A stretch of DNA of 64,000 bases, taken from the IMG/VR virus record IMGVR_UViG_3300021388_000002, one strand, 5' to 3'. The notes beneath the pieces were generated by a model. The model ran no database searches. It saw nothing but the letters and a program-made list of their open reading frames with translations, and was not told the DNA's origin. The translations under genes and the position numbers were made by a program. The DNA comes from a virus. Lineage: Duplodnaviria > Heunggongvirae > Uroviricota > Caudoviricetes. Below are positions 917 through 37,763 of the stretch, piece after piece. How positions within the stretch are numbered: position 1 is the stretch's first letter; the number at the start of each line of letters is the position of its first letter.

Positions 917-946
917 GTGAAGATCTTCGCCGGGCACGACGGCGGA
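917..946 (+). pseudogene. Orphaned N-terminal codons (VKIFAGHDGG) of the glycosyltransferase, cut off by the HNH insertion
   Basis: GTG AAG ATC TTC GCC GGG CAC GAC GGC GGA matches IRVFAGHDGG at 1623-1652; 11-nt identity cacgacggcgg. Confidence 0.65.
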
Positions 947-961
947 ACTTTTCTTTTCTAT

Positions 962-967
962 TACACT
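962..967 (+). promoter_or_regulatory. -10 box TACACT, probably a leaderless HNH transcript
   Basis: TANNNT hexamer 5 nt before ATG 973, no SD. Confidence 0.55.
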
Positions 968-972
968 AAAGT

Positions 973-1698
973 ATGCCTGGACGCTTGTGGACACCTGAAG
1001 AATACCGGGAACTTCGCGCAGCATATGTACGAGATAGTCCTATGGCCACGATAGCTATCGCCAAATACCTCCAGAGGTCGGTCAAAAGCGTGCAGATGCA
1101 TGCATTTCAACTTGGCCTTGAAAGGAACATAGGCAGGAAACGGCCTGATCCCAGGCTGGCGCCGGGTGATATTGTCGGCCGCTACAGGGTTATTAGCATT
1201 CTTCACTGGGAGCCGGCGAAGGAACGCGGATACGTGTATCTTTGCGAGAACACGTCTTGTGGTTGCAAGTCGGAGTTCCTGGATTCTACAGGTTATCGCA
1301 TGACTGGCGTAAAACCACGCTGTCGCTGCGCCATAGTGATACGGAATCCCGGCAAGAACTACATTAGATGGCAGTGGGACTACAAAGGAAAGACAGTCTC
1401 GGTAAACGAGCATCAGATCGTGATGGAAGGGCTGCTAGGCCGTCCGCTGTTGCCGGGAGAGAACGTGCACCATAAGAACGGCATACGGAACGATAATCAG
1501 CCACACAATCTGGAACTGTGGTCCGTGACGCAGCCCCCAGGGCAGCGTGTTGAGGACAGGACCGCCTGGGCTATCGAATGGCTTCGTACTTACGCGCCTG
1601 AAGTACTGGCTGAGGAGAAAAAATTAGGGTTTTTGCAGGTCACGACGGCGGCTCCGGCTGCAGCTATTACCGGATGGAGCTGCCGCTGCGCGAGATGA
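973..1698 (+). CDS. HNH homing endonuclease (free-standing)
   Basis: VHHKNGIRNDN..NLELW HNH motif, CxxxxC zinc knuckle, lower GC than neighbours. Confidence 0.9.
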   Translation: MPGRLWTPEEYRELRAAYVRDSPMATIAIAKYLQRSVKSVQMHAFQLGLERNIGRKRPDPRLAPGDIVGRYRVISILHWEPAKERGYVYLCENTSCGCKSEFLDSTGYRMTGVKPRCRCAIVIRNPGKNYIRWQWDYKGKTVSVNEHQIVMEGLLGRPLLPGENVHHKNGIRNDNQPHNLELWSVTQPPGQRVEDRTAWAIEWLRTYAPEVLAEEKKLGFLQVTTAAPAAAITGWSCRCAR

Positions 1699-2657
1699 TG
1701 CACGCCAGCGAGGACATCGAGGTGACCTTCGCCGACGCCGGGGACCGGCACCACCCGCCCTCGGTCACGCTGTCCATGCTGGCGGGTTATGACGTGATCG
1801 TGGCCCAGCGCTGGAACACGCACAAGGGCCTGGGCGTGTGGCGCCGGGCCCGCGGGCCGTTCAGCCGGACCGTGTACGAGCTGGACGACGACGTCTTCTC
1901 GATCACCCCGGAGAACTGGAACGCCTACCGGCTCTACCAGCGCCCCGACATCCGGGACGCGATCGAGCACGCCGCGGCCACCGCGGACCTGGTGACGGTG
2001 AGCACCGAGCCGCTGGCCGCGGTCATGCGTGCCTTCAGCGATCACGTGACGGTGCTGCCCAACTGCATCCCGGGCTGGGCCACCGCCATGAAGCGCACGC
2101 TCCGGGACCGGCCGCGGGTGGGCTGGAGCGGCGGGGCCAGCCACGGTGTGGACATCGGCCAGGTGGCCGCGCCCATCCGCCGGTTCCTGCGCCGGTTCAG
2201 CGGCTGGGACGCCCAGCTCGGCGGCACCGACTACCGGGCCACCATCCGCGCCCCGGCGGACCGGATGTTCTACCAGCCCTGGGTGCAGATCAACGACAAC
2301 CCCACCCGGTACTTCGCCGGGATTGATTTCGACATCGGCCTGTGCCCGCTGTACCCGACCACGTTCAGCGCCTCCAAGTCCGGGATCAAGGCGATCGAGT
2401 TCGGGGCGCGCGGCATCCCGGTGATCGCGAGCGACTGCCCGGCCTACCGCGGCGTGATCACCCACGGCGTCAGCGGCTTCCTGGTTAAGCAGGAGCACGA
2501 ATGGCTTAAATACATGAGCGAGCTGGCCGCCGATAATAACCTGCGCGCAACTATGGGCGCCGCCGCCCGCCAGATGGCGCGCCAGCACCTGATCGAGGAT
2601 CACTGGGTCCGCTGGCGGGATGCCTACGCCGGGCTGTTCAGCAGCGGGGCGCCATGA
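1623..2657 (+). CDS. GT-B glycosyltransferase (GT4-like); frame is open from ATT 1623, first ATG at 1674
   Basis: AGHDGGSGCSYYR N-terminus, YELDDD, DIGLCPL...SKSGIKAIEFGARGIPVIASD motifs. Confidence 0.85.
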   Translation: MRVFAGHDGGSGCSYYRMELPLREMMHASEDIEVTFADAGDRHHPPSVTLSMLAGYDVIVAQRWNTHKGLGVWRRARGPFSRTVYELDDDVFSITPENWNAYRLYQRPDIRDAIEHAAATADLVTVSTEPLAAVMRAFSDHVTVLPNCIPGWATAMKRTLRDRPRVGWSGGASHGVDIGQVAAPIRRFLRRFSGWDAQLGGTDYRATIRAPADRMFYQPWVQINDNPTRYFAGIDFDIGLCPLYPTTFSASKSGIKAIEFGARGIPVIASDCPAYRGVITHGVSGFLVKQEHEWLKYMSELAADNNLRATMGAAARQMARQHLIEDHWVRWRDAYAGLFSSGAP

Positions 2658-2785
2658 GGTTCCGGATCACCTACTGCGACGAGCGGGGCCAGGAGATCGC
2701 GGTAATCGAGGTCACCGCCACGGACAAGGCGGCGATCCCGCTGGACGCCCAGTACCTCCGGGTCCAGGCAGTGCCCGGAAGCTGA
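2654..2785 (+). CDS. 43-aa hypothetical protein
   Basis: ATGA overlap with glycosyltransferase stop; GC-rich third positions. Confidence 0.5.
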   Translation: MRFRITYCDERGQEIAVIEVTATDKAAIPLDAQYLRVQAVPGS

Positions 2786-2801
2786 GCAGGGGCCTCGCCG
2801 G

Positions 2802-3086
2802 TCAGCTGGCGACCGGCAGCACGTCCGGCAGGTGCGCCGCGGGCACGGGCACGGGCGGCCCGTCCGGCCACAGGATGCGCCGGATCGCCGCGGCCCGGAT
2901 CAGCCGCTGCCGCCCCGGGGTGCGGATGTAGTCATCGGGGGCGAGCTTGCCCTGGTCGCACCAGCGCGTGACCGTGCTGGCGCTGACCCGCAGCAGTACG
3001 GCAACTTCAGCTGGGCGCAGGAACCCGTCCTTCTCGGACAGGCGCTGCCACAGCTGCTCCCCCGTTGCGATCTGCGTTTCCGTCAT
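2802..3086 (-). CDS. BldC-like / excisionase-type MerR HTH DNA-binding protein
   Basis: LRPAEVAVLLRVSASTVTRWCDQGKL...IRTPGRQR resembles the BldC/HTH_17 signature. Confidence 0.75.
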   Translation of the reverse strand: MTETQIATGEQLWQRLSEKDGFLRPAEVAVLLRVSASTVTRWCDQGKLAPDDYIRTPGRQRLIRAAAIRRILWPDGPPVPVPAAHLPDVLPVAS

Positions 3087-3092
3087 AGGCGT

Positions 3093-3098
3093 ACGATA
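3093..3098 (-). promoter_or_regulatory. -10 box TATCGT, leaderless transcript of the BldC-like gene
   Basis: TANNNT 6 nt before ATG 3086. Confidence 0.5.
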
Positions 3099-3269
3099 CC
3101 GGCCGGCTGCATGATTTCACGGGGTTTCCGGGGTGGCGGGCGCTGCACCTGGGTATACCGCAGATGAGGACCAGGTGCGGATGGACTGGCTCGCGTGGGC
3201 CAGGAGTTCCGGCAGAGCCCCCCGATGGCCCCCGCTGGGCAGCCAGCTCACGGGGGCTCTGCTGTGCCT

Positions 3270-3461
3270 TCAGGCGGCCATGAACCCCGGCGGGGTGCCC
3301 GGGTCCGGCTCACCAGGCTCCGGCTCACCAGGCTCCGGCTCCCACTCCGGCGGGTCATACAGCAGCCGCGTGGCGACCGCGAGGGCGAGAACGGCACCGG
3401 CTACCGCTGTGCCCGCCACCGCCAGGGCAGTGAGCACCACGCGCCGGGAGGGCAGCGTCAT
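3270..3461 (-). CDS. Small membrane protein with EP/GEP repeats
   Basis: N-terminal hydrophobic helix, acidic Pro-rich tail. Confidence 0.5.
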   Translation of the reverse strand: MTLPSRRVVLTALAVAGTAVAGAVLALAVATRLLYDPPEWEPEPGEPEPGEPDPGTPPGFMAA

Positions 3462-3597
3462 AGCGGCAGCGTAGCCTTCTCCTGGCCCGGCCCGCAGCCG
3501 GCCAGGGAGAAGGGCCGGGCCCGGCCGGCCTGGGCAAGGCAGCCAGGTTGCGCCCGGCGGGGCCCGGCAAGGGCAGGAAGGTCAGTCCCGCGCTCTT

Positions 3598-3831
3598 TCA
3601 GGATGCCTGCTGGGCGGCCTGCGCGCCAGCCCCCGCCGGGCGGCGCCGCAGCGGGTGGTGCCGCCCGTACAGCCGGGTGACCCGGATGCGGCTGGCGATA
3701 CCGGGCAGCAGCGCGGCGTGCCGGTACGCCTTCAGCAGCGCGGCGGGCAGGCTGGCCGCGGTCACGCCGAACAGCAGCGTCCGGTTGCCGGGATAGGTGA
3801 CCTGCACCTGCCAGTGCCGTGTCTTTGCCAT
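3598..3831 (-). CDS. Hypothetical protein
   Basis: ATG 3831 with upstream AGGGG; coding-like codon usage. Confidence 0.45.
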   Translation of the reverse strand: MAKTRHWQVQVTYPGNRTLLFGVTAASLPAALLKAYRHAALLPGIASRIRVTRLYGRHHPLRRRPAGAGAQAAQQAS

Positions 3832-3932
3832 GATCGTCCCCTGCTGTGGTGGCGGCGCGGGAACGGTGCTGGCCGCCACCCCGCGGACGGGATGGCGGCC
3901 AGCGGCCCGGCGGGCCCTTGCGGGCTTCCAGG

Positions 3933-5579
3933 CTACAGCCGCCCGGCCGAGTGGTCGGCCAGCAGCACCGGGACCGCCGCGTCGAACCCGGAGACGTCCA
4001 GCGTGCCCGGGTCGGCCGGGTCGGCCACCGAGATGCGCGTCGGCACCGTCGCGACGAACTGCAGCTTCGCGCCGATGCCCATCGTCTGCCGGTAGGCCTC
4101 CAGGGCCTGGTGCGGGTGCGCCTGGCCCACGTTGATCTCACCATCGGTCCAGACGGTGAACGTGTCCACCTCCACCCGGTTCTGCGCGGCCCAGATCATC
4201 GGCAGCGCGATGTTGGTGGCACCCATGGGCAGGTCCGAGACCCGCCGCAGGACGGTGTCCAGCCGCATCCGCGGGGACAGGTCCAGCGGCCGGAACTCGT
4301 GGCTGAACCCGTACACGCCCCAGGCCGGCTCGGTGGCCATGGTAACCAGCGCCATGGCCGCCGTCATCTCCCGCGCCGTGCAGCCGTAGCCGGCCGCGTT
4401 CCAGCCCATCGACGCCGAGATGTCCAGCGCGATCATGGTCCGCTTCCCGGCCGGCTCCACCGCGCCGAAGGCCAGGTAGAACGCATCGGTCAGCGCATCG
4501 GTGACCTGCGGGATGGGCGCCCACCGGCTGGAGCCCTTCTGGCTGCGCCCGGTCGTGTAGACCCGGGCCGCGATCAGCAGCGACATCGGGTGCACCCGCC
4601 CGCGCCGCAGCAGCTCCGCGTCCCGCAGCCGGTCACACACCGCCCGCAGCCGGGCCGACATGGGCGCGATGACATCCAGCCGGGTCAGCGTCGGCAGGTT
4701 CCGGATCAGCGCGGTGATAGGCATGCCCGCATCGACCAGGGCACCCCAGACCTCCGGCATGGCCCGGGCCCCGTCCGGCAGCGCCTCCCACGGCAGCCCC
4801 GGGTAGTCGGCGATCAGCTGCACGTACGCCGCCGCCTTCGCCCGCCGGGCCAGCGCGGAGCCGGACGCCCGCTCGATGTCGCGCGCCCGCAGGTAAGCCC
4901 GGACCCAGTCTGGCATCAGCTCATCCGGCACCACGCCCGAGGTGACCCAGGCGAACAGCCGGCTGTGCATCTCCATGACGGTGCCGTCCGGCAGGGCCGG
5001 GTACGGGTGCGCCAGCCGCAGGATGTCGGCGTGCGTCCAGCCGTCCCGCTGCCGGTACTTGACCAGCTGGTAGGCCAGCGCGTCCGGGTCGCGGCCCAGG
5101 TACCAGGACGACACCGCCCGCCGGGTCACCGGGCCCCAGCCGCCGAACTGCTCGATGTACTTGCAGAACGTCGCCAGGGCCGAGCCGGTCCGCACGACAG
5201 CCGGGACCGCCCGCTCAGCCGCCCGGCGGCCCTCCGCGGTGGCGCCCAGCTGCAGGGCCGCCGCCAGCGCCAGCAGGGCAGGGGCCTGCCGCGGAGCCCG
5301 GCCCGCGACCGAGATCTGGGTGACCAGGCCCACCAGCTGCCCGGTGCGGTCCCGCGCCCAGGCCAGCACCAGCTCGCCGTTCTCGCGGGTCAGCTGCGCC
5401 TCGTCCACGTAGAACGTGCCGCCCGTGGTGCCCATGGTCAGGAACCGGCGCAGCCGCACCTCGTCAGCGACGGCAAAGCCCCAGCCCCCGGTGTGGTTGG
5501 GCACCTGCCGCGGGTCCGCCTGGACGTGCACAGGCGTAGCGGCGTTGCGGGTCCGGATCAGCTCCAGCGCATCGGTCAT
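3933..5579 (-). CDS. rsr: Ro60/Rsr TROVE-domain RNA-binding protein with vWA domain
   Basis: LRRFLTMGTTGGTFY, YQLVKYRQRDGWTHADILRLAHP, vWA MIALDISASM, FTVWTDGE; GGAGG SD at 5586-5590, so start is ATG 5579. Confidence 0.93.
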   Translation of the reverse strand: MTDALELIRTRNAATPVHVQADPRQVPNHTGGWGFAVADEVRLRRFLTMGTTGGTFYVDEAQLTRENGELVLAWARDRTGQLVGLVTQISVAGRAPRQAPALLALAAALQLGATAEGRRAAERAVPAVVRTGSALATFCKYIEQFGGWGPVTRRAVSSWYLGRDPDALAYQLVKYRQRDGWTHADILRLAHPYPALPDGTVMEMHSRLFAWVTSGVVPDELMPDWVRAYLRARDIERASGSALARRAKAAAYVQLIADYPGLPWEALPDGARAMPEVWGALVDAGMPITALIRNLPTLTRLDVIAPMSARLRAVCDRLRDAELLRRGRVHPMSLLIAARVYTTGRSQKGSSRWAPIPQVTDALTDAFYLAFGAVEPAGKRTMIALDISASMGWNAAGYGCTAREMTAAMALVTMATEPAWGVYGFSHEFRPLDLSPRMRLDTVLRRVSDLPMGATNIALPMIWAAQNRVEVDTFTVWTDGEINVGQAHPHQALEAYRQTMGIGAKLQFVATVPTRISVADPADPGTLDVSGFDAAVPVLLADHSAGRL

Positions 5580-5639
5580 GGCGCACCTCCTGTCGTGCGG
5601 TTCGTGCTGCGGTCGTGCGGGCTGAGGGCGCAGGGCCCC

Positions 5640-5718
5640 GCGAGCGAAAAGCGGCAGCCGGGCTGTTTTCACAGATTCCTTTGGATGAGAAAGGTGAGAA
5701 CCGGTCACCATCCGGCCC
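5640..5718 (-). ncRNA. Y-RNA-like gene 4 (short, no tRNA module)
   Basis: 5' GGGCCGGAUGGUGACCGGUU pairs with 3' CCGGCUGCCGCUUUUCGCUC; termini shared with the three upstream copies. Confidence 0.6.
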
Positions 5719-5748
5719 GCGGGGGCCCTGCGTCTTCAGTTGTGCCTG

Positions 5749-5873
5749 GCAAGCAAAGTGCGGCTACCGGGTTTTACGCGCTCTGCCGTTGAGCTACCGG
5801 GGTCACTGACCCCAGGCGGGACTCGAACCCGCAACCTCGCCATCCACAGTGGGTAACCGGTTGCCATCCGGCC
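5749..5873 (-). ncRNA. yrlA: YrlA-type Y RNA with permuted tRNA module (T arm, closed acceptor stem, D arm)
   Basis: GCGGG-UUCGAGU-CCCGC, CUGGGGUCA/UGACCCCGG, UAGCUCAACGGCAGAGC, enclosed by a GGCAACCGG/CCGGUAGCC stem; upstream of Ro60. Confidence 0.85.
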
Positions 5874-5892
5874 TGCCAGGTAAAGCGAGCTG

Positions 5893-5995
5893 GCGAGCGA
5901 AGCGCGAAGACCGGGTTCCCCGCCCTGCGGGGAGGGCCAGGTTTTATCCCGGCCCGGTGGAATCGAACCATCGGTAACCAGCCTTCATCCGGCCC
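5893..5995 (-). ncRNA. Y-RNA-like gene 2 (T-loop hairpin only)
   Basis: 5' GGGCCGGAUGAAGGCUGGUU pairs with AACCCGGUCUUC; contains UGGUUCGAUUCCA; 3' GCUUCGCUC. Confidence 0.65.
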
Positions 5996-6016
5996 GCCAG
6001 CAAATCGTGAGGAGAC

Positions 6017-6117
6017 GGGCGAAAGCTGAGCACCGGCTAGACCCCTGGAAGGGGCTGGGGCTTCACAGACCCCGGGTGGGCTTGCGCCCTGGCGTGATAA
6101 CCGCCGCTCTCCGGCCC
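6017..6117 (-). ncRNA. Y-RNA-like gene 1
   Basis: 5' GGGCCGGAGAGCGGCGGUUA pairs with UAGCCGGUGCUC; 3' GCUUUCGCCC. Confidence 0.6.
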
Positions 6118-6132
6118 GTCTCCAGGCCTGAT

Positions 6133-6149
6133 CCATAGCGTGAGCATCA
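6133..6149 (+). repeat. 17-bp motif CCATAGCGTGAGCATCA, copy 1 (inverted copy at 19484-19500)
   Basis: Exact 17/17 match. Confidence 0.85.
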
Positions 6150-6168
6150 TTACGCGATTCGCGTATTG

Positions 6169-6207
6169 TGGCCCCGGCGGGACTCGAACCCGCACACCCG
6201 GCTTAGG
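6169..6207 (-). pseudogene. 3' half of split tRNA-Arg(CCT)
   Basis: CCTAA GCCGG GTGT GCGGG TTCGAGT CCCGC CGGGGCC A; acceptor strand matches the 5' half at 6712-6744. Confidence 0.85.
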
Positions 6208-6279
6208 TTGGCCCGGCGGGACTCGAACCCGCACGCACGACTTAGGGGGTCGCCGCTCTATCCTCTGAGCTACGAGCCA
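6208..6279 (-). tRNA. tRNA-Arg(CCT), nested copy, C33
   Basis: Cloverleaf, loop CC CCT AA, U1-A72; overlapped by the endonuclease 3' end. Confidence 0.8.
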
Positions 6280-6688
6280 TTGGGTCTAGCAGGTATGCCG
6301 CAGCGTCCCTAGTACCTAGAGACTGGTTATTGCGGGCAGGCTGCAGTCTAAGGGCGACCGTGCGCCTGTAACCAGCTACATCTTCAATAGGGATCAGATA
6401 GACCTGGCTTAGAGCGGCTAGATAAACCCCGAAAAGATCAACTTGGCCCTCGTAACACTTACGCGGCGATCCGGGCCCCGAACTGGAGACATTGAACTCT
6501 AGCGCCGAACCGTCCCTCACCAGGCGTGCTGTTTTGCACTGAACCCGCTTGAACTGGCCGCTCGACTCAATGACCAGGTCATACCGCGTAACCCCAAATG
6601 GCACGAGCACGTTGTAGCCAGCATGCAGCAAGACCGAGAGAATAGCGCCTTCAGTCCGTGCACCCTTCTCATTGGTAGTGAGGGCCAT
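6242..6688 (-). CDS. PD-(D/E)XK endonuclease, I-Ssp6803I-like
   Basis: KGARTE...YDLVI...RVQCKT...YEGQVDLFGVY; stop codon lies in the anticodon loop of the nested tRNA. Confidence 0.85.
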   Translation of the reverse strand: MALTTNEKGARTEGAILSVLLHAGYNVLVPFGVTRYDLVIESSGQFKRVQCKTARLVRDGSALEFNVSSSGPGSPRKCYEGQVDLFGVYLAALSQVYLIPIEDVAGYRRTVALRLQPARNNQSLGTRDAAAYLLDPMARSSEDRAATP

Positions 6689-6695
6689 GGTTTAT

Positions 6696-6701
6696 AGACT
6701 A
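6696..6701 (-). promoter_or_regulatory. -10 box TAGTCT for the endonuclease (leaderless)
   Basis: 7 nt before ATG 6688. Confidence 0.5.
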
Positions 6702-6711
6702 CCAGCTAGCT

Positions 6712-6744
6712 GGCCGTGGCTCTGATCCATTGAGCTACGGGGCC
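6712..6744 (-). pseudogene. 5' half of split tRNA-Arg(CCT)
   Basis: GGCCCCG TA GCTC AATGGATCA GAGC C ACGGC C, then unrelated sequence. Confidence 0.85.
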
Positions 6745-6935
6745 AGAAGTCCCAGCTTGTCCCCGCTTGTCCCAGCGTCTTGCGGGCCAGGCCGCCACGG
6801 TGTGAAAGTGAACGTGTGCAGCCGGTCTGCTCCGGATCTGTGCGGATAGTGAAACGGTCCCGCCCTGTGGTCCCGGTAACCGGGATTCCTGGCAAATCAG
6901 GGCGGGACCAAAATTCCGGGCGCCCGGAAAATCAG

Positions 6936-7008
6936 AGGCGGGGCGGGGAATCGAACCCCGGTGCGGCGCTTTGCAGGCGCCTGCCTATCCAGACTCGGCC
7001 ACACCGCC
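6936..7008 (-). tRNA. tRNA-Cys(GCA)
   Basis: Cloverleaf, loop CT GCA AA, U73. Confidence 0.9.
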
Positions 7009-7013
7009 AGGAA

Positions 7014-7141
7014 GTGAGAGCAGCAGAGAAGTCCCGTCTAACCTGCCGCTTTGCCGCCGGAGACACCCGGCTTTCGGTATAACCGCCGCTGAGGTACCCG
7101 TCACAGCCCTCTACACATGACGGCAGGCTCGCTGCTCTCAC
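7014..7141 (-). ncRNA. Structured spacer RNA, unknown class
   Basis: Perfect 11-bp terminal stem GTGAGAGCAGC/GCTGCTCTCAC plus inner CCTGCCG/CGGCAGG; fills the Arg-Cys spacer. Confidence 0.5.
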
Positions 7142-7143
7142 CG

Positions 7144-7215
7144 TGCGCCCAGCGGGACTCGAACCCACATCGCCGGCTCCGGAGGCCGGTGCCCTATCCA
7201 TTGAACGATGGGCGC
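7144..7215 (-). tRNA. tRNA-Arg(CCG)
   Basis: Cloverleaf, CCGGC CT CCG GA GCCGG. Confidence 0.92.
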
Positions 7216-7265
7216 GTAAAATCGTGCTATTGCTGGCGGCCCTCCCACGGGACTGGCCGCCGTTC

Positions 7266-7634
7266 TCATGCTCTCTCAGCCGCCAGGTCGTGCTGACCGG
7301 GCCGCCGCCGGGGCACGTGCAGGGCCAGGATGCCGTGCTCATTCAGCAGGTCGCACACGTCGGCCCGGTCGTCGTAGTAGACCCCGATGCCCAGCGACAG
7401 GCACAGCTCCAGCTTGAGCGCGGGCGACTCGCGCGGGTGCGCGAACCAGACCTCGTGCACGGCGGTGCAGGTGATCCCGCGGGCGGCCACATCAGCGGCG
7501 ACCGTGCCACGGGTCCGGTCCCCGACCCCGGAGATGACGTAGACCTCGTGCCCGGCCGCCATCAGCGCGGCGGACAGGTCGCGGAAGTACGGCCAGTGGC
7601 TGCAGACCTGCCAGTAGTCCAGGCCGATCCGCAT
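7266..7634 (-). CDS. Small HAD-like hypothetical protein
   Basis: MRIGLDYW motif-I-like start, YYDDR motif-IV-like, ATG 7634. Confidence 0.6.
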   Translation of the reverse strand: MRIGLDYWQVCSHWPYFRDLSAALMAAGHEVYVISGVGDRTRGTVAADVAARGITCTAVHEVWFAHPRESPALKLELCLSLGIGVYYDDRADVCDLLNEHGILALHVPRRRPGQHDLAAERA

Positions 7635-7650
7635 CTTCTTCTCGTTCACG

Positions 7651-7733
7651 TGGCAGGACCAGGATTTGAACCTGGGAAGCCGAAGCAACCGTTTTACAGA
7701 CGGCCCCTTTTAGCCAGACTCGGGCACCCTGCC
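7651..7733 (-). tRNA. tRNA-Tyr(GTA)
   Basis: Long variable arm, loop CT GTA AA. Confidence 0.9.
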
Positions 7734-7734
7734 T

Positions 7735-7811
7735 TGGGGTGGCTGACCGGACTCGAACCGGCATCCTCTGGACCCACAACCCAGCGCCATAGCCTTTCAG
7801 CCACAGCCACC
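7735..7811 (-). tRNA. tRNA-His(GTG)
   Basis: Encoded G-1, C73 and CCA; loop TT GTG GG. Confidence 0.92.
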
Positions 7812-7812
7812 G

Positions 7813-7885
7813 TGGACGTACCTGGGATCGAACCAGGGACCTTCGCTGTGTGAGAGCGCTGCTCGTTCCGCTGAGCTACACGTCC
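7813..7885 (-). tRNA. tRNA-Val(CAC)
   Basis: Cloverleaf, loop CT CAC AC. Confidence 0.9.
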
Positions 7886-7951
7886 GTGCTGGCAAAACCA
7901 GCTGAATAACAGTTAATTACCGACGAACTTCAGCTAATTAACTGCCATACG

Positions 7952-8023
7952 CGCGCCCAGGAGGACTCGAACCCCCATTGGCGGCTCCGTAGGCCGCAGC
8001 CCTATCCGTTGGACGATGGGCGC
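7952..8023 (-). tRNA. tRNA-Arg(ACG)
   Basis: GCGGC CT ACG GA GCCGC. Confidence 0.92.
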
Positions 8024-8033
8024 TTGTCTTGCG

Positions 8034-8105
8034 TGGGCCCGGGAGGGATCGAACCACCGGCCTCCCCCGTGTCAGGGGGGTGCTCTCCCGCTGAGCTACG
8101 AGCCC
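8034..8105 (-). tRNA. tRNA-Val(GAC)
   Basis: CCCCC CT GAC AC GGGGG. Confidence 0.9.
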
Positions 8106-8227
8106 TTGTGTCCCATCCGCCTGGCTAGTGGCAGCTTCGCCCCGTGACCGGTGGCCACCCGCTCAAAATGGCTGGCGCGCCTTGGCAGCCGGGAGCCAGG
8201 GGGCAAGCAGGAGGGACTGCCTGCTAG

Positions 8228-8302
8228 CGGGGGCGACGGGATTTGAACCCGCGACGTCCAGATCGACAATCTGGCGCTCTGACCGGACTGAGCTACGTCC
8301 CC
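8228..8302 (-). tRNA. tRNA-Asp(GTC)
   Basis: CCAGA TT GTC GA TCTGG, G73. Confidence 0.92.
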
Positions 8303-8381
8303 TGGGGGTAGTGCGGTCGTGCTGATGATGCTAGCCGTGTGAGGCCACGTGGCTATCCGTGCAGTGGCTTGCGGCGCCTCG

Positions 8382-8453
8382 CTCCCCTGGCCAGACTCGA
8401 ACTGGAACCTTCCGGTTAACAGCCGGGCGCTCTGCCAATTGAGCTACAGGGGA
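8382..8453 (-). tRNA. tRNA-Asn(GTT)
   Basis: U1-A72, loop CT GTT AA. Confidence 0.92.
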
Positions 8454-9094
8454 TCGTTTATGAAGGCGGCCATCCGGGCGGGCTGCCGGGAGGGCCGGGC
8501 CAGGATAATGCTCACCATGGCAGCGTTGGCGGCGAGCAGGTACCCCGGGTAGATGAGCCCGGCCGCACTGGGCTGATGCACCAGGACCGCAGCCAGGGTC
8601 AGGGTGCCGCCGAGGCCGAACCAGGCGAAACCCGCCCAGGGCTCCCCGCCGGGATCAGCCCAGCCGTGCCGGTATGTCGGGATGAACGCGGCCAGGTCGG
8701 TCAGCGCCGAGATTGTGATGGCCGCCCAGACAGGCAGTGCCCGCGGGCTGGCGATAGCGATCGCCAGCATCACGATCCCGGCGCCAGCCAGTACGGTGCA
8801 CACGGCATCCAGGCGGCTGAATTCCCGGGTCCCGTACATCCAGGCCACGCAGAGCACGATCATGCAGGCAGCCGCATCCAGGCCGGTATAGAAGCCGCTG
8901 GCCAGCTGCCGGGGTGCTACCGCCAGCTCCCCGGCCGTCCCGGTCGCCGCGGCTGCGGACCACAGCGACCAGGACGATAGCCGCAGGTCAGCGCGCTCGT
9001 CCGGTTTCCGGCTGTCCCGGATCATGATCCAGCTGCCATACAGTGTGGCTGCTGCCGCCATGGCTGCCAGGATGATCGCTGCGGCTCCCGGCAT
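8444..9094 (-). CDS. Multi-pass membrane protein
   Basis: About 6-7 hydrophobic helices; stop falls inside the 5' end of tRNA-Asn. Confidence 0.7.
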   Translation of the reverse strand: MPGAAAIILAAMAAAATLYGSWIMIRDSRKPDERADLRLSSWSLWSAAAATGTAGELAVAPRQLASGFYTGLDAAACMIVLCVAWMYGTREFSRLDAVCTVLAGAGIVMLAIAIASPRALPVWAAITISALTDLAAFIPTYRHGWADPGGEPWAGFAWFGLGGTLTLAAVLVHQPSAAGLIYPGYLLAANAAMVSIILARPSRQPARMAAFINDPL

Positions 9095-9099
9095 CGCTG

Positions 9100-9495
9100 C
9101 TACGCCGCCTGTGTCTCAGCGGCCTGCCGGAACGACTCCAGCTCTGCGCTTGTGAACGGGTGTTCCAGGTATCCCGAATCGGACCATTCCTGGTACTCTA
9201 GCTCGCTGCTGTTGCTGCTGAGCCTGGTGACTGCGTAACGCACGTGGTAACCCGAATCCGTGCTGAGGGTGAAGGCCCCCGGCGTCAGCTCCGTCAGCTC
9301 ATAGCAGGTGACGGACCCCGATCTGGCCCGGGACGTATAGACCGTGCCAATCCTGGGTGGCCATTCGCTGGCGGTCTCGGATTCCACAAAATCCAGCCAG
9401 GAGGGCGTGTTCTCCGGGTTGAGCGCAAATGACAGGACATCCACTGCCGGGAGGCTGATGATGATGCGAAGCCGCTGGCCTGCCCTGGGCTTCAC
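9100..9495 (-). CDS. SRPBCC/polyketide-cyclase-like protein
   Basis: LSFALNPENTPSW...YHVRY..ELEYQEW pattern; coupled to neighbours. Confidence 0.6.
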   Translation of the reverse strand: MKPRAGQRLRIIISLPAVDVLSFALNPENTPSWLDFVESETASEWPPRIGTVYTSRARSGSVTCYELTELTPGAFTLSTDSGYHVRYAVTRLSSNSSELEYQEWSDSGYLEHPFTSAELESFRQAAETQAA

Positions 9496-10310
9496 GAGGA
9501 CGTCAGCCCCAGGTGGTCAGACAGGTCGGCCGGGCGGCTGGATTCCGGGCTGCTGCGGGTGTAGTAGTTGCAGGCCATGACAACCCGGAGCTGCGGGTAC
9601 CCGCTGGGTGGTCTCGGTGCCCGCACGCGCCGGATGAGCTGGTCCACGTAATGGGTATGGCCGCGACCATCAAAAGCCAGGAAATGCCCGGCTTGCGGGT
9701 AGATCACAATGGGGGCCTCTTCCACGGCGGCCAGGCCGCGCACGTCGCCCTGGCCGGCTATGCGCAGCGCCCCGCCGCAGCCGGCCGGATGGGAGGTGAA
9801 GTACAGCAGGCCCTGAACGGGCTGGGAATCGACGTGCAGCTCATACCGTGGGCCTTCTGGCTGCACGTTGAGCACAGCCCCGTACCGGATGTCCTGCGCG
9901 ACGCCCAGTTCCTCGGTGCTGATCTCCTGGGCCAGCTGCTTCAGCGGGCCGCGGTACAGGGTGTCAGCCCAGGGCAGCTGGCGGGCCAGGACGTTCCCGG
10001 GCACGACGTAAGTATCCAGCTGGAGAGCCTTGTCGTCCTCACGTGAGGTTACCGAGGTAGGCGTTATCACCTGGTGCACAACCGCAGCGGGATCGGCGGC
10101 CACAGCCAGCACCTGGCGCTGCCAGCCCGCAGGCAAGAGCGATGTCACGTCCCAGTCCCGCCAGCTGAACCGGGACGTCAGGACGGGTGCCGGGCGATGA
10201 CCAAGCAGCCAGTTCTGGCACGGGCTGGGATGAACCAGCCCTCCCTGGGAGCCGAGCGTGAACGGGACGCCGCATTCAGGGCAGGTACCAAGCCGAGATC
10301 GCGTCTTCAC
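9492..10310 (-). CDS. 2OG-Fe(II) dioxygenase-like protein with N-terminal Cys knuckle
   Basis: YELHVD (HxD), GGAL, HTHYV (distal His), terminal R; GGAGG SD. Confidence 0.7.
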   Translation of the reverse strand: MKTRSRLGTCPECGVPFTLGSQGGLVHPSPCQNWLLGHRPAPVLTSRFSWRDWDVTSLLPAGWQRQVLAVAADPAAVVHQVITPTSVTSREDDKALQLDTYVVPGNVLARQLPWADTLYRGPLKQLAQEISTEELGVAQDIRYGAVLNVQPEGPRYELHVDSQPVQGLLYFTSHPAGCGGALRIAGQGDVRGLAAVEEAPIVIYPQAGHFLAFDGRGHTHYVDQLIRRVRAPRPPSGYPQLRVVMACNYYTRSSPESSRPADLSDHLGLTSS

Positions 10311-10360
10311 TGGTTACCTCCTGTGCCTCACCGATTCCGTAAAGTCATCACCGTAACTCA

Positions 10361-10468
10361 TCAGGACCCGAGCCGCCCTGCCACCGCCTGCTCGGCGATC
10401 CGCCACAGCGGCTCGGTATCGAGCAGCAGCCCATCCATGTCAGCGAGCACGGCAAACTCAGCCATCAT
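10361..10468 (-). pseudogene. N-terminal fragment of a HAD phosphatase
   Basis: VLADMDGLLLDTEPLW motif I, then a stop after about 35 aa. Confidence 0.6.
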
Positions 10469-10583
10469 TACCGCCATTTCCGCCCGGCACTCCCTCCGGG
10501 CTCCCGCCTGTCTCCTGATCGCATCAGGCTTACCGTAACCCGTACGTGATCTTGAGGACAAGGCGGGGCGAAGTGATCACTCT

Positions 10584-10660
10584 TGGTAGCGGGGGCAGGA
10601 TTTGAACCTGCGGCCTCTGGGTTATGAGCCCAGTGTGCTGCCGAACTGCACCACCCCGCG
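10584..10660 (-). tRNA. Initiator tRNA-fMet(CAT)
   Basis: C1-U72 mismatch, GGG/CCC in anticodon stem, encoded CCA. Confidence 0.93.
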
Positions 10661-10661
10661 G

Positions 10662-10748
10662 TCGCGGTGACGGGAATCGAACCCGTGCGGTTTCACCCTA
10701 CGCGCTTGAAAGGCGCGCGGCCCGTTAGCCATCAGGGCCCCCACCGCG
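10662..10748 (-). tRNA. Atypical tRNA with TTC (Glu) anticodon and long variable arm
   Basis: 5-bp D stem GGCCC/GGGCC, 6-bp anticodon stem, loop CT TTC AA, about 13-nt variable region. Confidence 0.7.
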
Positions 10749-10755
10749 CTGACCG

Positions 10756-10830
10756 CGTCCCTGGCGGGCTTTGAACCCGCGTCACCGCCTTGAGAGGACG
10801 GCGTCCTGAGCCTGACTAGACGACAGGGAC
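10756..10830 (-). tRNA. tRNA-Glu(CTC)
   Basis: TCGTCTAG D arm, loop CT CTC AA. Confidence 0.9.
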
Positions 10831-11055
10831 CTGGATACTGCTGCTGAAGCATCGGATAGTAGTTACCTGTGCACGGAGGTGGACAGTTGCTAGCAGCAGA
10901 GTTACGGTGCCCTTACTGTCCGCAACAGAGGAAGGGGCCTCCATGGATTTCGTGACTTACCGGTTCACGACCTACCGGTTCTGACGCCCGGCCCCCGCTG
11001 GGGCAACCCCCCGTAACCACAGGAGCCAGGTCTGCTGCCCGGGACCTGGCTCCTG

Positions 11056-11128
11056 TGCGCCCGGCAGGATTTGAACCCGCGACCATCTGCTTAGAGGGCA
11101 GCCGCTCTGTCCGCTGAACTACGGGCGC
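11056..11128 (-). tRNA. tRNA-Arg(TCT), C33
   Basis: CTGC/GCAG stem closes the 7-nt loop CC TCT AA. Confidence 0.85.
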
Positions 11129-11143
11129 CGGTACAGTGCAGGC

Positions 11144-11374
11144 GTGGCCATCGACCAGGGAATTCTCCGGCAGCTCGCCGAGGCCGACATCGACGCCGTG
11201 CCGGCCGGCGACGGCAGGCTCCTGACCCTGACGCACCGCCCGACCGGGATCACCCTGGAGCGGCCGGTGTTCGCTGACGCGCTGAACGTGAGTCACGGCA
11301 TCGGGGCCTTGCTGACCGAGGCGGGCAAGACCGGGTGGGCCGCCAGGGACTCGAACCCTGAACGTGCAACTTAA
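11144..11374 (+). CDS. Small hypothetical protein, antisense to the tRNA array
   Basis: GC3-rich codons; 3' end overlaps tRNA-Lys. Confidence 0.4.
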   Translation: MAIDQGILRQLAEADIDAVPAGDGRLLTLTHRPTGITLERPVFADALNVSHGIGALLTEAGKTGWAARDSNPERAT

Positions 11375-11407
11375 AAGGATGCTGCTCTGCCATTGAGCTA
11401 GCGGCCC
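11336..11407 (-). tRNA. tRNA-Lys(TTT)
   Basis: Cloverleaf, loop CT TTT AA. Confidence 0.9.
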
Positions 11408-11408
11408 G

Positions 11409-11448
11409 TGGGCCGGGCGGGGCTTGAACCCGCGACCCCCGTCTTAGG
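11409..11448 (-). pseudogene. 3' half of split tRNA (anticodon uncertain, Lys-like body)
   Basis: (CC)TAA GACGG GGGTC GCGGG TTCAAGC CCCGC CCGGCCC A; pairs with the 5' half at 11949-11980. Confidence 0.8.
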
Positions 11449-11522
11449 TGGCACGGGTGGGACTTGAACCCACGTACGGCCGATTATGAGTCGGCTGCTT
11501 GGACCAGCTCAGCTACCGCGCC
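11449..11522 (-). tRNA. tRNA-CAT (Met or Ile2), nested copy
   Basis: GCCGA CT CAT AA TCGGC; HNH stop lies in its anticodon loop. Confidence 0.85.
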
Positions 11523-11933
11523 TCGGCCGAACTGGACATCCCGGGCACACTTAATAGAGCAAGAGGACGGATTGCCGCCCTTGACCAGGTGCGTCTGCCT
11601 GCGCAGCCGCTCGAAAGATTTACCGCACCCGGGGCAGACCAGCATAACTACAGCCGCTGGTTTATGCCCCTTCCTGATGTTGGCTGCTCGTGCCAGAGAC
11701 TGGATGTTCGCCGGATCATCATTAGACGGATCGTCGTCTATATGATCAGCGTCCACCTCCTGGGCTGGAATAGCGCCAAGCCGGATTGACAGCAGGTAAC
11801 GAGCGAAGCTCATCGTTGTCCGGTGATGTGGGCTGGTGAGAACAACGATCTTCCTGTTCTGCTTCTGGTCCAGATAGGGCCCATATACCGTGTACGCAGT
11901 AAACGGGGCTGGATGGGGCAGAAGGCTGGCCAC
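11484..11933 (-). CDS. HNH endonuclease with C-terminal Cys motifs
   Basis: VDADHIDDDPSNDDPANIQ HNH core, CPGC and CSIKC. Confidence 0.85.
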   Translation of the reverse strand: MASLLPHPAPFTAYTVYGPYLDQKQNRKIVVLTSPHHRTTMSFARYLLSIRLGAIPAQEVDADHIDDDPSNDDPANIQSLARAANIRKGHKPAAVVMLVCPGCGKSFERLRRQTHLVKGGNPSSCSIKCARDVQFGRGAVAELVQAADS

Positions 11934-11939
11934 GCGATC

Positions 11940-11945
11940 ATTATA
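11940..11945 (-). promoter_or_regulatory. -10 box TATAAT for the HNH (leaderless)
   Basis: Consensus hexamer 6 nt before GTG 11933. Confidence 0.65.
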
Positions 11946-11948
11946 CGT

Positions 11949-11980
11949 GACGTCACTCTGACCAGCTGAGTTACCGGCCC
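11949..11980 (-). pseudogene. 5' half of split tRNA
   Basis: GGGCCGG TA ACTC AGCTGGTCA GAGT G ACGTC. Confidence 0.8.
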
Positions 11981-11985
11981 GTGCG

Positions 11986-12057
11986 TGGCGGAAGGTGGGA
12001 TCGAACCACCGGCCTCTCCCTTATGAGGGGATCGCTCTGCCCCTGAGCTATACCGCC
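11986..12057 (-). tRNA. tRNA-CAT (Met or Ile2)
   Basis: TCCC CT CAT AA GGGA. Confidence 0.88.
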
Positions 12058-12061
12058 GTGG

Positions 12062-12135
12062 TGGGCGAGGGAGGATTTGAACCTCCGACCTTTTCCTTAT
12101 CAGGGAACTGCGAGAACCGGCTACGCTGCTCGCCC
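12062..12135 (-). tRNA. tRNA-Ile(GAT)
   Basis: Loop CT GAT AA. Confidence 0.88.
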
Positions 12136-12146
12136 ATGGTGCTGCG

Positions 12147-12234
12147 CGGAGGAGGTGGGGATCGAACCCACACGGGAGTTACCCCTGACCGTTTTCGGGA
12201 CGGTATCCGGCGCCAGCCCTCGGATGGCCCCTCC
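12147..12234 (-). tRNA. tRNA-Ser(CGA), C33
   Basis: GGAGG acceptor, long variable arm, ACCGT CC CGA AA ACGGT, G73. Confidence 0.85.
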
Positions 12235-12312
12235 AGGTGAAACAGGCAGTGCTGGCAAGGGCGGGTCTCCGACCGCGCGCACTTACATGCCAGCACCAGG
12301 TTCAGGATAAAG

Positions 12313-12399
12313 CGGAGGATGTGAGATTTGAACTCACGAGGGTGTTACCCCAACGCGCTTTCCGGGCGCGCGCCATAGGCCGGACTAGGCGAATCCTCC
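12313..12399 (-). tRNA. tRNA-Ser(GGA), C33
   Basis: CGCGC CC GGA AA GCGCG, long variable arm. Confidence 0.88.
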
Positions 12400-12403
12400 C
12401 GGT

Positions 12404-12751: not shown

Positions 12752-12776
12752 ATCCGGGTGATACCCGCCAGGAGCG

Positions 12777-12865
12777 CGGAGGATACAGGATTTGAACCTG
12801 TGAGGGACGCGATGCCCAACCTCATTAGCAGTGAGGCGCCATAGACCGGACTAGGCGAATCCTCC
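12777..12865 (-). tRNA. tRNA-Ser(GCT)
   Basis: CCTCA CT GCT AA TGAGG. Confidence 0.92.
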
Positions 12866-13674: not shown

Positions 13675-13677
13675 CAC

Positions 13678-36056: not shown

Positions 36057-36070
36057 CAGGTGGTAATCAA

Positions 36071-36097
36071 ATGCGCGTCCTGATTGTTCATCCAGGC
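36071..36097 (+). pseudogene. Orphaned N-terminus (MRVLIVHPG) of the downstream glycosyltransferase
   Basis: Same 9 residues recur with different codons at 36698-36724. Confidence 0.75.
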
Positions 36098-36123
36098 AGC
36101 CATGAATTACATCCTGGACCAGG

Positions 36124-36129
36124 TAATCT
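36124..36129 (+). promoter_or_regulatory. -10 box TAATCT for the HNH (leaderless)
   Basis: 6 nt before ATG 36136. Confidence 0.55.
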
Positions 36130-36135
36130 CTGTGT

Positions 36136-36681
36136 ATGACCAGGAGATACGCAGAGATACCCGTCACTTGGGAGATGCACGAGCGGTTCGAGGCCAAGCT
36201 GCTGCCAGGTCCGCCATCGCCCGACGAGGAGCTAGCACCAGGCCCGTGCTGGCACTGGTCGGGCGGCCATTTCAAGAAAACGGGCTATGCCATGTTCAGC
36301 GTCAAGCACGCGGACGGGCACTGGGCACCAACTACCGCGCACCGGATTGCGTGGCGGCTGTACCGGGGCGAATTCGACCCCGAGCTGGAACCAGATCATC
36401 TGTGCCGAAACAGAGCGTGTGTGAACCCCTGGCATGGCGAGCCAGTAACGCGGCGCGTCAACATGCTTCGTGGCGACCATCCGACTGCGATTCTCAGCAG
36501 GCTGGGCAAATGCCCGCACGGGCACGAGATGACAGAGGACAATACGCTCACGCGAAAGAGCGGCAAGCGCGAGTGCAAGGCCTGCGTTCAGGCCCGCGAC
36601 CGGGCGCGCAGCAAAGACCGCAAAGAGCACTATCAGCGGATGTACCAGAACCGGAAAGCGAGGCGTGCTGTCGCCTCCTAG
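36136..36681 (+). CDS. HNH homing endonuclease
   Basis: CWHWSG, AHRIAW, DHLCRNRACVNPWH, CPHGHE...RECKAC. Confidence 0.92.
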   Translation: MTRRYAEIPVTWEMHERFEAKLLPGPPSPDEELAPGPCWHWSGGHFKKTGYAMFSVKHADGHWAPTTAHRIAWRLYRGEFDPELEPDHLCRNRACVNPWHGEPVTRRVNMLRGDHPTAILSRLGKCPHGHEMTEDNTLTRKSGKRECKACVQARDRARSKDRKEHYQRMYQNRKARRAVAS

Positions 36682-36697
36682 AGGAGGTGATGCCCCC

Positions 36698-37763
36698 ATG
36701 CGTGTACTGATAGTGCACCCTGGTTTAAGGTCCCGACTTCTCCGTGCACGACGTATATGCCGGATGGCATGAGGCCCTGGCCGGGCTCGGCTGCCAGGTG
36801 GCGGGCTATAACCTCAACGACCGGCTGATCTTCTACTCGATGGCCCTGATGGACACGGGTGAGAAAGACGAGAACGGCCTCCCGGTCGTGCGCCAGGCCA
36901 TGATCCAGGAGCAGGCCTATGCCGCCGCGATCCAGGGCCTGAGCCACGCCTGCTACACATTCTGGCCCGACGTCGTGCTGTTCATCTCGGCTTTCTTCAT
37001 AAACGCTGCGACATTCCAGCTGCTGCGCGAGCGGCGGCACAAGCTGGTCATCCTGCACACAGAATCGCCCTATCAGGACGAGGAGCAGCTGGTCAGGGGA
37101 CAGCTGGCCCACCTGAACCTGCTGAATGACCCCACCAACATTGATGAGTTCAGGCGGTTCAGCCGGGCGGCGTACATGCCGCATGCCTACCGGCCCTCGG
37201 TGCACTATCCCCGGCGCGGCCCAGTCGATCCGGCCCGGGCCAGTGACCTGTGCTTCATCGGCACCGCGTTCCGGTCCCGGGTTGAGTTCTTTGAGGCCAT
37301 GGACCTGTCCGGGCTGGATGTGCTGATCGGCGGCAACGACTGGGGCTCGATCCCGGCCGGCTCCCCGGTTGCGCCGCTGATCGGCTCCGGGCTGGGCAAC
37401 CCGGACTGCGTGGACAACCCCCAGGCGGCTGAGCTGTACCGGCACGCGCGGATGGGCATCAACTTCTACCGCCGTGAGGCTGAGGAAGGCTGGGACACCC
37501 GGGCCTGGGCCATGGGCCCGCGGGAAGTGGAGATGGCGGCCATCGGGCTGCCGTTCCTGCGCGACCCGCGCGGCGAGGGTGACGAGGTGCTGCCCATGCT
37601 GCCAACTTTCGCCGGTCCCGAGGACGCCAGCGAGCAGCTGCGCTGGTGGCTGGAGCATGAGGCCGAGCGCGAGAAAGCGGCGGCTGAAGCCCAGGCGGCG
37701 ATCGCGGGCCGCACCTTTGAGGCCAGCGCACGCACATTTCTCCAGCTCGTCAGCAAGCTATGA
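36698..37763 (+). CDS. Glycosyltransferase (CgeB/DUF3880-like); frame broken by a 7-nt insert at 36725-36731
   Basis: Strong SD + MRVLIVHPG in one frame; PDFSVHDVY...MGPREVEMAAIG in the +1 frame; ORF track starts at GTG 36744. Confidence 0.8.

Follow-up and report, generated by a model that had tools for sequence, protein, structure and literature searches.

The published design closest to the one described here is that of the mobile open reading frames (mORFs) of fungal mitochondria, found in atp6, atp9, cox2 and nad3 of Glomus (PMC3630166) and, as cited in that paper, in atp6 of Allomyces macrogynus. There, as appears to be the case here, a free-standing homing endonuclease sits in a gene together with a diverged copy of the segment that it displaced, the native segment persists as an unexpressed remnant, and no splicing is involved. 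In phages, the T4/T6 nuclease SegB cuts transfer RNA (tRNA) genes and causes the region that encodes it to be inherited preferentially (PMC13096335), a gap in T4 near the nick site of the HNH enzyme MobA protects against this enzyme (bioRxiv 10.1101/2022.08.31.505936), and 10-nucleotide (nt) gaps led by UUA in the terminase of phiHau3 are bypassed, the evidence being mass spectrometry in E. coli on a variant of the first gap in which UAA replaces UUA (PMC10732093). We analysed a window, meaning the whole stretch of DNA under study, of 64,000 nt from the uncultured phage recorded in IMG/VR as IMGVR_UViG_3300021388_000002 (Caudoviricetes). Five nuclease genes in this window each lie inside the target that they broke, the targets being three tRNA genes and two glycosyltransferase genes (GT1 and GT2). 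Judged from the sequence, these are quite probably five free-standing homing-endonuclease cassettes, intron-like at the DNA level and non-splicing, each of which carries its own replacement for the interrupted part.

Nuclease cassettes in tRNA and glycosyltransferase genes

All five cassettes consist of a nuclease open reading frame (ORF), a diverged copy of the displaced segment and the native remnant (5/5), and all lie on the same strand as their targets. The guanine-cytosine (GC) content of the nuclease ORFs is 54-63%, against 69.6% for the window. Two of the products, PD2 (6242-6688, minus strand) and PD4 (13252-13662, minus strand, GTG start), are PD-(D/E)XK endonucleases of the I-Ssp6803I family, which match Pfam PDDEXK_5 (PF11645) with E-values of 1e-26 and 5e-35 and with 93.6 and 121 bits against a cut-off of 26.1; PD2 has 67 homologues, and PD4 also matches PDB 2OST (E 3e-6). 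The remaining three were assigned to Pfam HNH_3. HNH1 (973-1698, plus strand; E 8e-6; GC 54.5%) has relatives that are 76-85% identical, and HNH5 (36136-36681, plus strand, ATG start; E 3e-9) has 76% identical copies at the same site of the GT2 gene of another phage. For HNH3 (11484-11933, minus strand, GTG start) the match is weak (E 1.5e-3), the HNH motif is visible, and two of its 12 homologues carry PF13392. Sequence searches of PDB with the three HNH proteins gave no nuclease match, and zinc-finger-like matches only, for HNH3. Pattern scans of IMG/VR for PD2, HNH1 and HNH3 gave no match; the relatives came from a large protein collection, in which the HNH1 product is placed on a contig of 164,629 bp. 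A megablast search of window positions 1-20000 against cultured phages returned trivial matches only and no close cultured relative, and the nearest relatives are the IMG/VR contigs G001 (210 kb, with terminal repeats) and G002 (139.6 kb), whose tRNA arrays are syntenic with that of the window.

The tRNA array, with 38 minus-strand genes, spans 6.2-19.6 kb, and the three cassettes within it are each flanked by both halves of a tRNA split in the anticodon loop. Each begins with a 5' half that ends at about loop position 32, after which come, in this order, a -10 box at a distance of 3-10 nt, the nuclease ORF, a whole tRNA and the 3' half, with the whole tRNA overlapping the end of the nuclease ORF by 10-39 nt and directly abutting the outer 3' half. 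In the PD2 cassette the 5' half of a tRNA-Arg(CCT) (6712-6744, minus strand) ends at loop position 32, and its acceptor strand pairs at 7/7 positions with the 3' half (6169-6207, minus strand). The whole replacement tRNA-Arg(CCT) at 6208-6279 (minus strand; ARAGORN, and Rfam with 57 bits) has a different anticodon stem and a C at position 33. The HNH3 cassette splits a tRNA that is of the Met/Ile-CAU type by position; its 5' half (11949-11980, minus strand) also adjoins the homologous cassette in the relative L054, and the acceptor strand of its 3' half (11409-11448, minus strand) is complementary to 11974-11980. Here the replacement is a whole tRNA-Met(CAT) (11449-11522, minus strand; ARAGORN, and Rfam with 63.9 bits), which resembles the native tRNA at this position in G002 and is overlapped by the HNH3 ORF by 39 nt. 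In the PD4 cassette the 5' half of a tRNA-Thr (13678-13709, minus strand) is the orthologue of Thr(GGT) in G002, and the 3' half (13149-13189, minus strand) lacks two loop bases on alignment to the replacement tRNA-Thr(GGT) (13190-13261, minus strand). This replacement is AT-richer and has a weak anticodon stem of only three good pairs, and its 39.8 bits are the second-lowest Rfam score among the tRNA matches; alignment of the outer to the inner copy shows that the outer tRNA had the same GGT anticodon. Across the cassettes, such alignments reveal that the outer tRNA has lost one or two bases of the loop.

With introns allowed, ARAGORN joins the outer Thr halves (13149-13709) into a single tRNA-Thr that is interrupted at position 32 by 487 nt, and the joined halves of the Arg and Met/Ile-type cassettes also fold as tRNAs. 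Orphan T-arms outside the annotated tRNAs of the window are limited to these three 3' halves, one unannotated tRNA and a Y-RNA-like element. The sequence CCTAAG occurs at two of the tRNA junctions and was considered as a shared cassette end or footprint; this was rejected, as in the Arg case it is the anticodon loop itself. For the HNH3 cassette, which has the other CCTAAG junction, the anticodon of the outer tRNA is not recoverable with certainty.

In GT1 (plus strand), codons 1-10 with the original GTG start (917-946) match the intact 5' ends of L002, L008, L059 and other relatives, and are separated from codon 11 by 706 nt that hold a spacer, the hexamer TACACT, HNH1, a Shine-Dalgarno sequence and ten re-spelled codons. 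The substitute (1612-1652, plus strand) consists of the Shine-Dalgarno sequence GAGGAG (1612-1617) and the re-spelled codons 1-10 from an ATT at 1623, a layout that is kept in L052; the tail of the HNH1 ORF overlaps this new start out of frame. The substitute is identical to the remnant at 21 of 30 nt and at 8 of 10 residues. It leads into the resident body from codon 11 (1653-2657, plus strand; Pfam Glycos_transf_1; relatives 65-72% identical). Joining 917-946 to 1653 onward rebuilds the intact GT1 of the relatives, which is uninterrupted and has a strongly conserved N-terminus in 9 IMG/VR and 14 metagenome relatives. In L069, one of the uninterrupted relatives, the start also appears to be ATT with a strong Shine-Dalgarno sequence ahead. 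A substitute with a 6-nt insert, or a -1 slip fusing HNH1 to GT1, was rejected, as L052 and L069 show a plain ATT start behind a Shine-Dalgarno sequence. Cassette-free GT1 relatives carry frame-breaking inserts of 1, 5 and 7 nt at codons 13-16, which is 10-18 nt downstream of the HNH1 insertion site. Among them are a 7-nt gap GCT-TTA-G-GCC in L004, a 5-nt duplication in L008 and a TTT-TTA +1 site common to two divergent lineages, L005 (=L061) and L064/L065, and none of these genes has a frame break elsewhere.

In GT2 (plus strand), the remnant region (36071-36123, plus strand) comprises codons 1-9 (36071-36097) and a further piece (36110-36123), an older and partial remnant which moves as part of the cassette and is shared with L044. 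After HNH5 follow a Shine-Dalgarno sequence, a new ATG at 36698 and re-spelled codons 1-9 that end in GGT (36683-36724, plus strand), nearly identical in L044. This substitute agrees with the remnant at 20 of 27 nt and at 9 of 9 residues. The resident body (36732-37763, plus strand; Pfam Glyco_trans_1_2) has 17 relatives, all uninterrupted and with a strongly conserved N-terminus; remnant and body together rebuild their intact sequence, and the intact ones are without the 7 nt at 36725-36731. These 7 nt lie at the junction of cassette and host (plus strand) and comprise TTA-A (36725-36728) and a second GGT (36729-36731), so that the junction reads GGT-TTA-A-GGT (36722-36731) and the new 5' end is out of frame with the body by a 4-nt gap. 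In L044 the gap is one base longer (an 8-nt version against 7), with a 5-nt gap, GGT as the putative take-off and GGC as the putative landing codon, and TTA directly follows the take-off Gly codon in both phages; the L044 junction has cassette sequence upstream and host-specific sequence downstream.

Two gap lengths with matching Gly codons point to hopping rather than to a fixed frameshift, and bypassing is suggested because the N-terminus is strictly conserved in the 17 relatives. The gap is thus probably passed by a UUA-triggered ribosome hop like that of T4 MobA/gene 60: the ribosome would stall on the rare UUA, and the peptidyl-tRNA-Gly would move from one GGT to the next. The tRNA array has Leu tRNAs with CAG, GAG and CAA but no Leu-UAA, so the phage does not supply a tRNA for this UUA. 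As the gap lies exactly at the junction of cassette and host, it plausibly also shields against the nuclease, by analogy with the T4 gap and MobA. In L013, a GT2 relative without a nuclease, the conserved N-terminal motif contains an in-frame 6-nt insert that starts with TTA, some 20 nt from the beginning of the match.

Both empty and occupied forms of these sites exist in relatives. G001 and G002 each carry one intact Arg(CCT) and one intact Thr(GGT) at the syntenic positions and, at the third site, a Met/Ile-type tRNA. In other phages, the sites are filled by homologous cassettes built in the same way. For the PD2 type, L049 and L050 show 5' half, box, nuclease, Arg(CCT) and 3' half, and L051 the same without the 3' half; for the PD4 type, L041 has 5' half, box, nuclease and a whole tRNA-Asn. 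In the HNH3 type, L054, L055 and L056 have a 5' tRNA half, box and nuclease, followed by a whole tRNA-Met in L054, a whole tRNA-Ile in L055 and, in L056, only degenerate tRNA-like sequence that ARAGORN does not call. Of the HNH1 type are L052/L053, in which the remnant ends after the same codon 10 and the nuclease is followed by a Shine-Dalgarno sequence, ATT and re-spelled codons; L044-L046 represent the HNH5 type, with a nearly identical new 5' end. The split Arg halves are true partners, with 7/7 acceptor pairs in L049 and L050 as in the window, and compensatory changes between the window and L050 are found at acceptor pair 6:67 and at anticodon-stem pairs 28:42 and 29:41. This argues that the halves were working tRNAs when they diverged, and that different live alleles were invaded rather than one scar decaying.

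The original prediction had taken the five ORFs for endonucleases that insert and replace, without splicing, in a manner general to this phage lineage. The nuclease assignments hold (three HNH proteins, with HNH3 under the Pfam cut-off, and two I-Ssp6803I-like PD-(D/E)XK proteins). The comparison of empty sites that it had proposed found related phages with uninterrupted targets at exactly these positions, and these together with the occupied sites and the lack of a ribozyme match support the 'insert and replace' reading of the five cassettes. Its statement that each ORF is followed by a substitute is right for the three whole tRNAs and the two re-spelled glycosyltransferase starts and incomplete as to layout, as the tRNA cassettes also have 3' halves. 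The recoding of the first 9-10 glycosyltransferase codons is likewise present, with the qualification that GT1 starts at ATT 1623 without any ATG, GTG or TTG and that the GT2 substitute is out of frame unless 36725-36728 are skipped.

Candidate leaderless promoters

The same prediction had placed a TANNNT box 5-7 nt ahead of every nuclease start codon and within about 30 nt of a broken target fragment, and both points were borne out, with all five boxes found and distances from fragment to box of 0-26 nt. The hexamers are TACACT (962-967, plus strand; 5 nt ahead of the HNH1 start), TAGTCT (6701-6696, minus strand; 7 nt ahead of PD2), TATAAT (11945-11940, minus strand; 6 nt ahead of the HNH3 GTG), TAAGAT (13674-13669, minus strand; 6 nt ahead of the PD4 GTG) and TAATCT (36124-36129, plus strand; 6 nt ahead of the HNH5 ATG). 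The PD2 box has TGG ahead of it, like the TGn of an extended -10. Only 27 of the 3735 ATG or GTG triplets in the window have a TANNNT box at such a distance (0.72%), so the five out of five is far beyond chance; among the window ORFs of at least 40 codons, the five nucleases stand out for this box.

The boxes are also kept in the homologous cassettes. L052/L053 have the same TACACT at the same spacing (5 nt ahead of ATG) amid diverged flanks, L049 has the same TAGTCT and L050 TACTCT/TATACT, TATAAT stands 5-6 nt ahead of the start in L054, L055 and L056, L041 has TACCGT 7 nt ahead of an ATG, and L044-L046 have an identical TAATCT 6 nt ahead of a GTG. In total, TANNNT lies 5-8 nt ahead of the start in 13/13 cassettes (5/5 in the window and 8/8 in relatives) of five unrelated families; the hexamer is the same within a cassette family, while the bases around it have diverged. 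A hexamer kept amid diverged flanks at a fixed distance from the start codon speaks for a functional -10 element, that is, a promoter. No Shine-Dalgarno sequence is present ahead of the nuclease starts and there is no room for one. TANNNT at this distance is a mark of actinobacterial leaderless genes (Cortes 2013 and Shell 2015, as cited in PMC11855218). From this signature we infer that the nucleases would be translated from leaderless mRNAs made from their own -10 promoters.

It is unlikely, although the layout would be just as described, that the nucleases are instead translated from read-through transcripts of the array or operon, with TANNNT serving, for example, as a recognition sequence or a recombination junction. 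All cassettes do share the strand of their targets, and a scan for E. coli-type -35/-10 promoters detected none of the five boxes (0/5), which is expected for -10-only actinobacterial promoters and hence uninformative. Both in the window (ATGA) and in L044 (GTGA), the start codon of HNH5 shares bases with the stop codon of the remnant ORF; because this overlap is present in both copies, translational coupling to the remnant ORF could replace leaderless initiation at HNH5 or add to it. Against read-through stand the missing Shine-Dalgarno sequences and the missing space for them, the lack of any upstream translation to couple to in the tRNA-borne cassettes, the actinobacterial leaderless mark itself, and the retention of the hexamer in 13 copies while neighbouring bases change.

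Two further features touch on nuclease expression. At 926-960 (plus strand), just ahead of the HNH1 box, the GT1 remnant forms a 7-bp GC-rich hairpin that is followed by the T-rich spacer of the cassette; L052 lacks this terminator-like arrangement. Each of the three nuclease ORFs in the tRNA array has its stop codon within the replacement tRNA (overlaps 6242-6279, 11484-11522 and 13252-13261, minus strand), so cutting of a shared transcript by RNase P would leave a nuclease mRNA without a stop codon, which could be a brake on nuclease expression.

Proposed mechanism and alternative readings

According to the cassette reading, the enzyme would cut the cassette-free allele, in the anticodon stem-loop of tRNA genes and at about codons 9-11 of the glycosyltransferase genes, and a cassette-bearing genome would serve as the repair template, with the target sequence on either side of the break providing the homology arms. 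Insertion would therefore be precise, placing the cassette at the point of cleavage between the recipient's own pieces of the gene. Because the insertion destroys the gene, a substitute is carried at the 3' end to compensate: a complete tRNA of the same identity, or a ribosome-binding site, a new start codon and the re-spelled first 9-10 codons that would read into the resident glycosyltransferase body. The substitute differs around the cut site (changes in the anticodon stem, third-position re-spelling, the 4-nt gap of GT2), presumably protecting it against the enzyme. The nuclease itself, starting 5-7 nt after TANNNT, would come from a leaderless mRNA of actinobacterial type. We infer cleavage at the insertion points, immunity of the substitutes and homing with the halves as arms from the arrangement of the sequences.

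Several points weigh against this reading. The HNH3 match lies under the Pfam cut-off, and the stop/start overlap of HNH5 described above offers another route to its translation. The outer tRNAs lack 1-3 loop bases at the junctions, which clean homing would not remove. Not every cassette retains both halves: L041 and L051 have no 3' half, and that of L054 is degenerate. A U at tRNA position 33 is near-universal, and full function is not certain for the replacement tRNA-Arg, with C33, or for the replacement tRNA-Thr, with its weak anticodon stem. Finally, the first insertion at each site would need an illegitimate event that is not reconstructable.

An alternative that we consider improbable is ordinary intronless homing, in which nucleases beside resistant alleles spread via long flanks and the fragments are debris of one old illegitimate event per site. 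Free-standing nucleases beside tRNA genes are common, as with T4/T6 SegB (PMC13096335). In Pectobacterium phage My1 a PD-(D/E)XK ORF abuts tRNA-Ile with no visible halves, and the loss of 3' halves in L041 and L051 fits the same picture. However, all five window cassettes and most of those in relatives keep pieces of the target exactly at both cassette ends, remnant and gene body rebuild the intact gene precisely, and the compensatory pair changes between the halves of different phages are not expected from neutral decay of one old scar.

Least of all do the data favour removal of the inserts at the RNA level, as introns or by joining of tRNA halves, with the split genes functional and the inner copies as extras: although ARAGORN accepts the tRNA-Thr cassette as an intron-bearing tRNA, related PD-(D/E)XK enzymes lie in group I introns of tRNA genes (PMC3984707), and Enterococcus phage EFP01 (L043, 1135-1670) has a PD-(D/E)XK ORF inside tRNA-Asp with no spare tRNA, the intron hypothesis was rejected. 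Rfam gave no group I or group II intron match in the window, whether with gathering thresholds or with E<=1. A catalytic core would not fit, since fragment and box are 3-26 nt apart and the replacement tRNA abuts the 3' half. In addition, the tRNA junctions have lost loop bases, excision of the inner tRNA by RNase P and RNase Z would sever the halves, and the glycosyltransferase remnants duplicate the new 5' ends and do not complement them. In the tRNA-Asp of EFP01 ARAGORN calls a 463-nt insert at position 36, which may be a true intron or may mark a dead tRNA.

The cassette reading can be extended, tentatively and with less than even confidence, to the proposal that essential genes for RNAs and proteins in these high-GC phages are colonised by homing endonucleases in the manner of 'spliceless introns', and that the very short UUA-led gaps found in various genes of these phages are footprints of the resulting arms race or shields. 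The clustering of the inserts in GT1 relatives at codons 13-16, near the HNH1 site, supports this proposal, as does the TTT-TTA +1 site common to two divergent lineages. If the cassette reading is correct, a predicted nuclease-proof spare enables a homing endonuclease to reside in a gene with neither intron nor intein, even in a tRNA gene, where a fix at the protein level is impossible, and two unrelated nuclease families would have converged on this replacement solution in one genome. The five enzymes would come with natural pairs of predicted target and immune sequences useful for specificity mapping, and the cassettes provide a compact set of candidate leaderless promoters. The GT2 gap would be a second, very short kind of ribosome hop, here predicted, that is tied to a homing endonuclease, so that questions of how coding gaps arise and what they do could be tested in systems other than T4. 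For annotators, half-tRNAs, seemingly 'frameshifted' glycosyltransferases and ATT starts in such phages can signal cassettes rather than errors.

Other features of the tRNA array were noted. ARAGORN missed a probable Ser tRNA with a long arm at 12148-12234 (minus strand; 31.9 bits with the tRNA-Sec model) and another tRNA at 16624-16695 (minus strand; 46 bits), at the position where relatives have Phe. An ORF of LysM and lytic-transglycosylase-like type (15207-16172, minus strand) is embedded in the array, and an MFS-transporter ORF (16784-18016, plus strand) lies in its middle on the strand opposite to the tRNAs. A Y-RNA-like (YrlA) match at 5743-5867 (minus strand; 47.6 bits, under the gathering score) stands beside a 648-codon ORF (3846-5792, plus strand) whose homologue in L049 carries TROVE/Ro60 domains; together they resemble a phage-borne Ro-Y RNA pair, placed where the tRNA array ends.

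Comparison with known systems

A search for published cassettes of a nuclease and a replacement tRNA inside split phage tRNAs found none, which is weak evidence as most subscription journals lay outside the search. I-Ssp6803I, from a group I intron in the tRNA-fMet gene of Synechocystis (PDB 2OST; PMC3384342), belongs to the same PF11645 family and shares the tRNA target and the place in the anticodon stem-loop. Unlike it, the cassettes described here have no intron, contain a complete spare tRNA and lie in a phage tRNA array. SegB of T4/T6 (PMC13096335) is likewise a free-standing nuclease in a phage tRNA array; it is of the GIY-YIG family, has intact tRNA genes on either side and is not reported to interrupt a tRNA for which it brings its own substitute. 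The 'hidden' HNH insertion of ShiLan in mycobacteriophage methylase genes (PMC11855218) also places an HNH element in an actinophage gene without intron or intein, with leaderless initiation proposed, but there the host protein accommodates the insert as an in-frame loop, and no replacement copy comes with it.

With T4 MobA and gene 60 (Bonocora 2011, as cited in bioRxiv 10.1101/2022.08.31.505936), the GT2 cassette shares an HNH homing endonuclease with a gap in the neighbouring gene and matching take-off and landing Gly codons, and the T4 gap is described in that source as shielding the site from MobA. Unlike the gene 60 gap of 50 nt with its stop codon, the gap found here, for which bypass is predicted, is 4-5 nt long and is led by the rare UUA, as in the phiHau3 terminase (PMC10732093). 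It also lies exactly at the junction of cassette and host, and the cassette re-supplies the start of the gene, which is not the case for MobA and gene 60.

The fungal mORFs remain the nearest counterpart. In those elements it is the 3' end of the gene that is replaced, in frame from the resident gene, with the nuclease after it. Here, in a phage of high-GC bacteria, what is replaced is either a whole tRNA or a 5' end, the latter calling for a fresh ribosome-binding site and start codon, the nuclease comes first with its own predicted promoter, and in GT2 the replacement is combined with a UUA gap.

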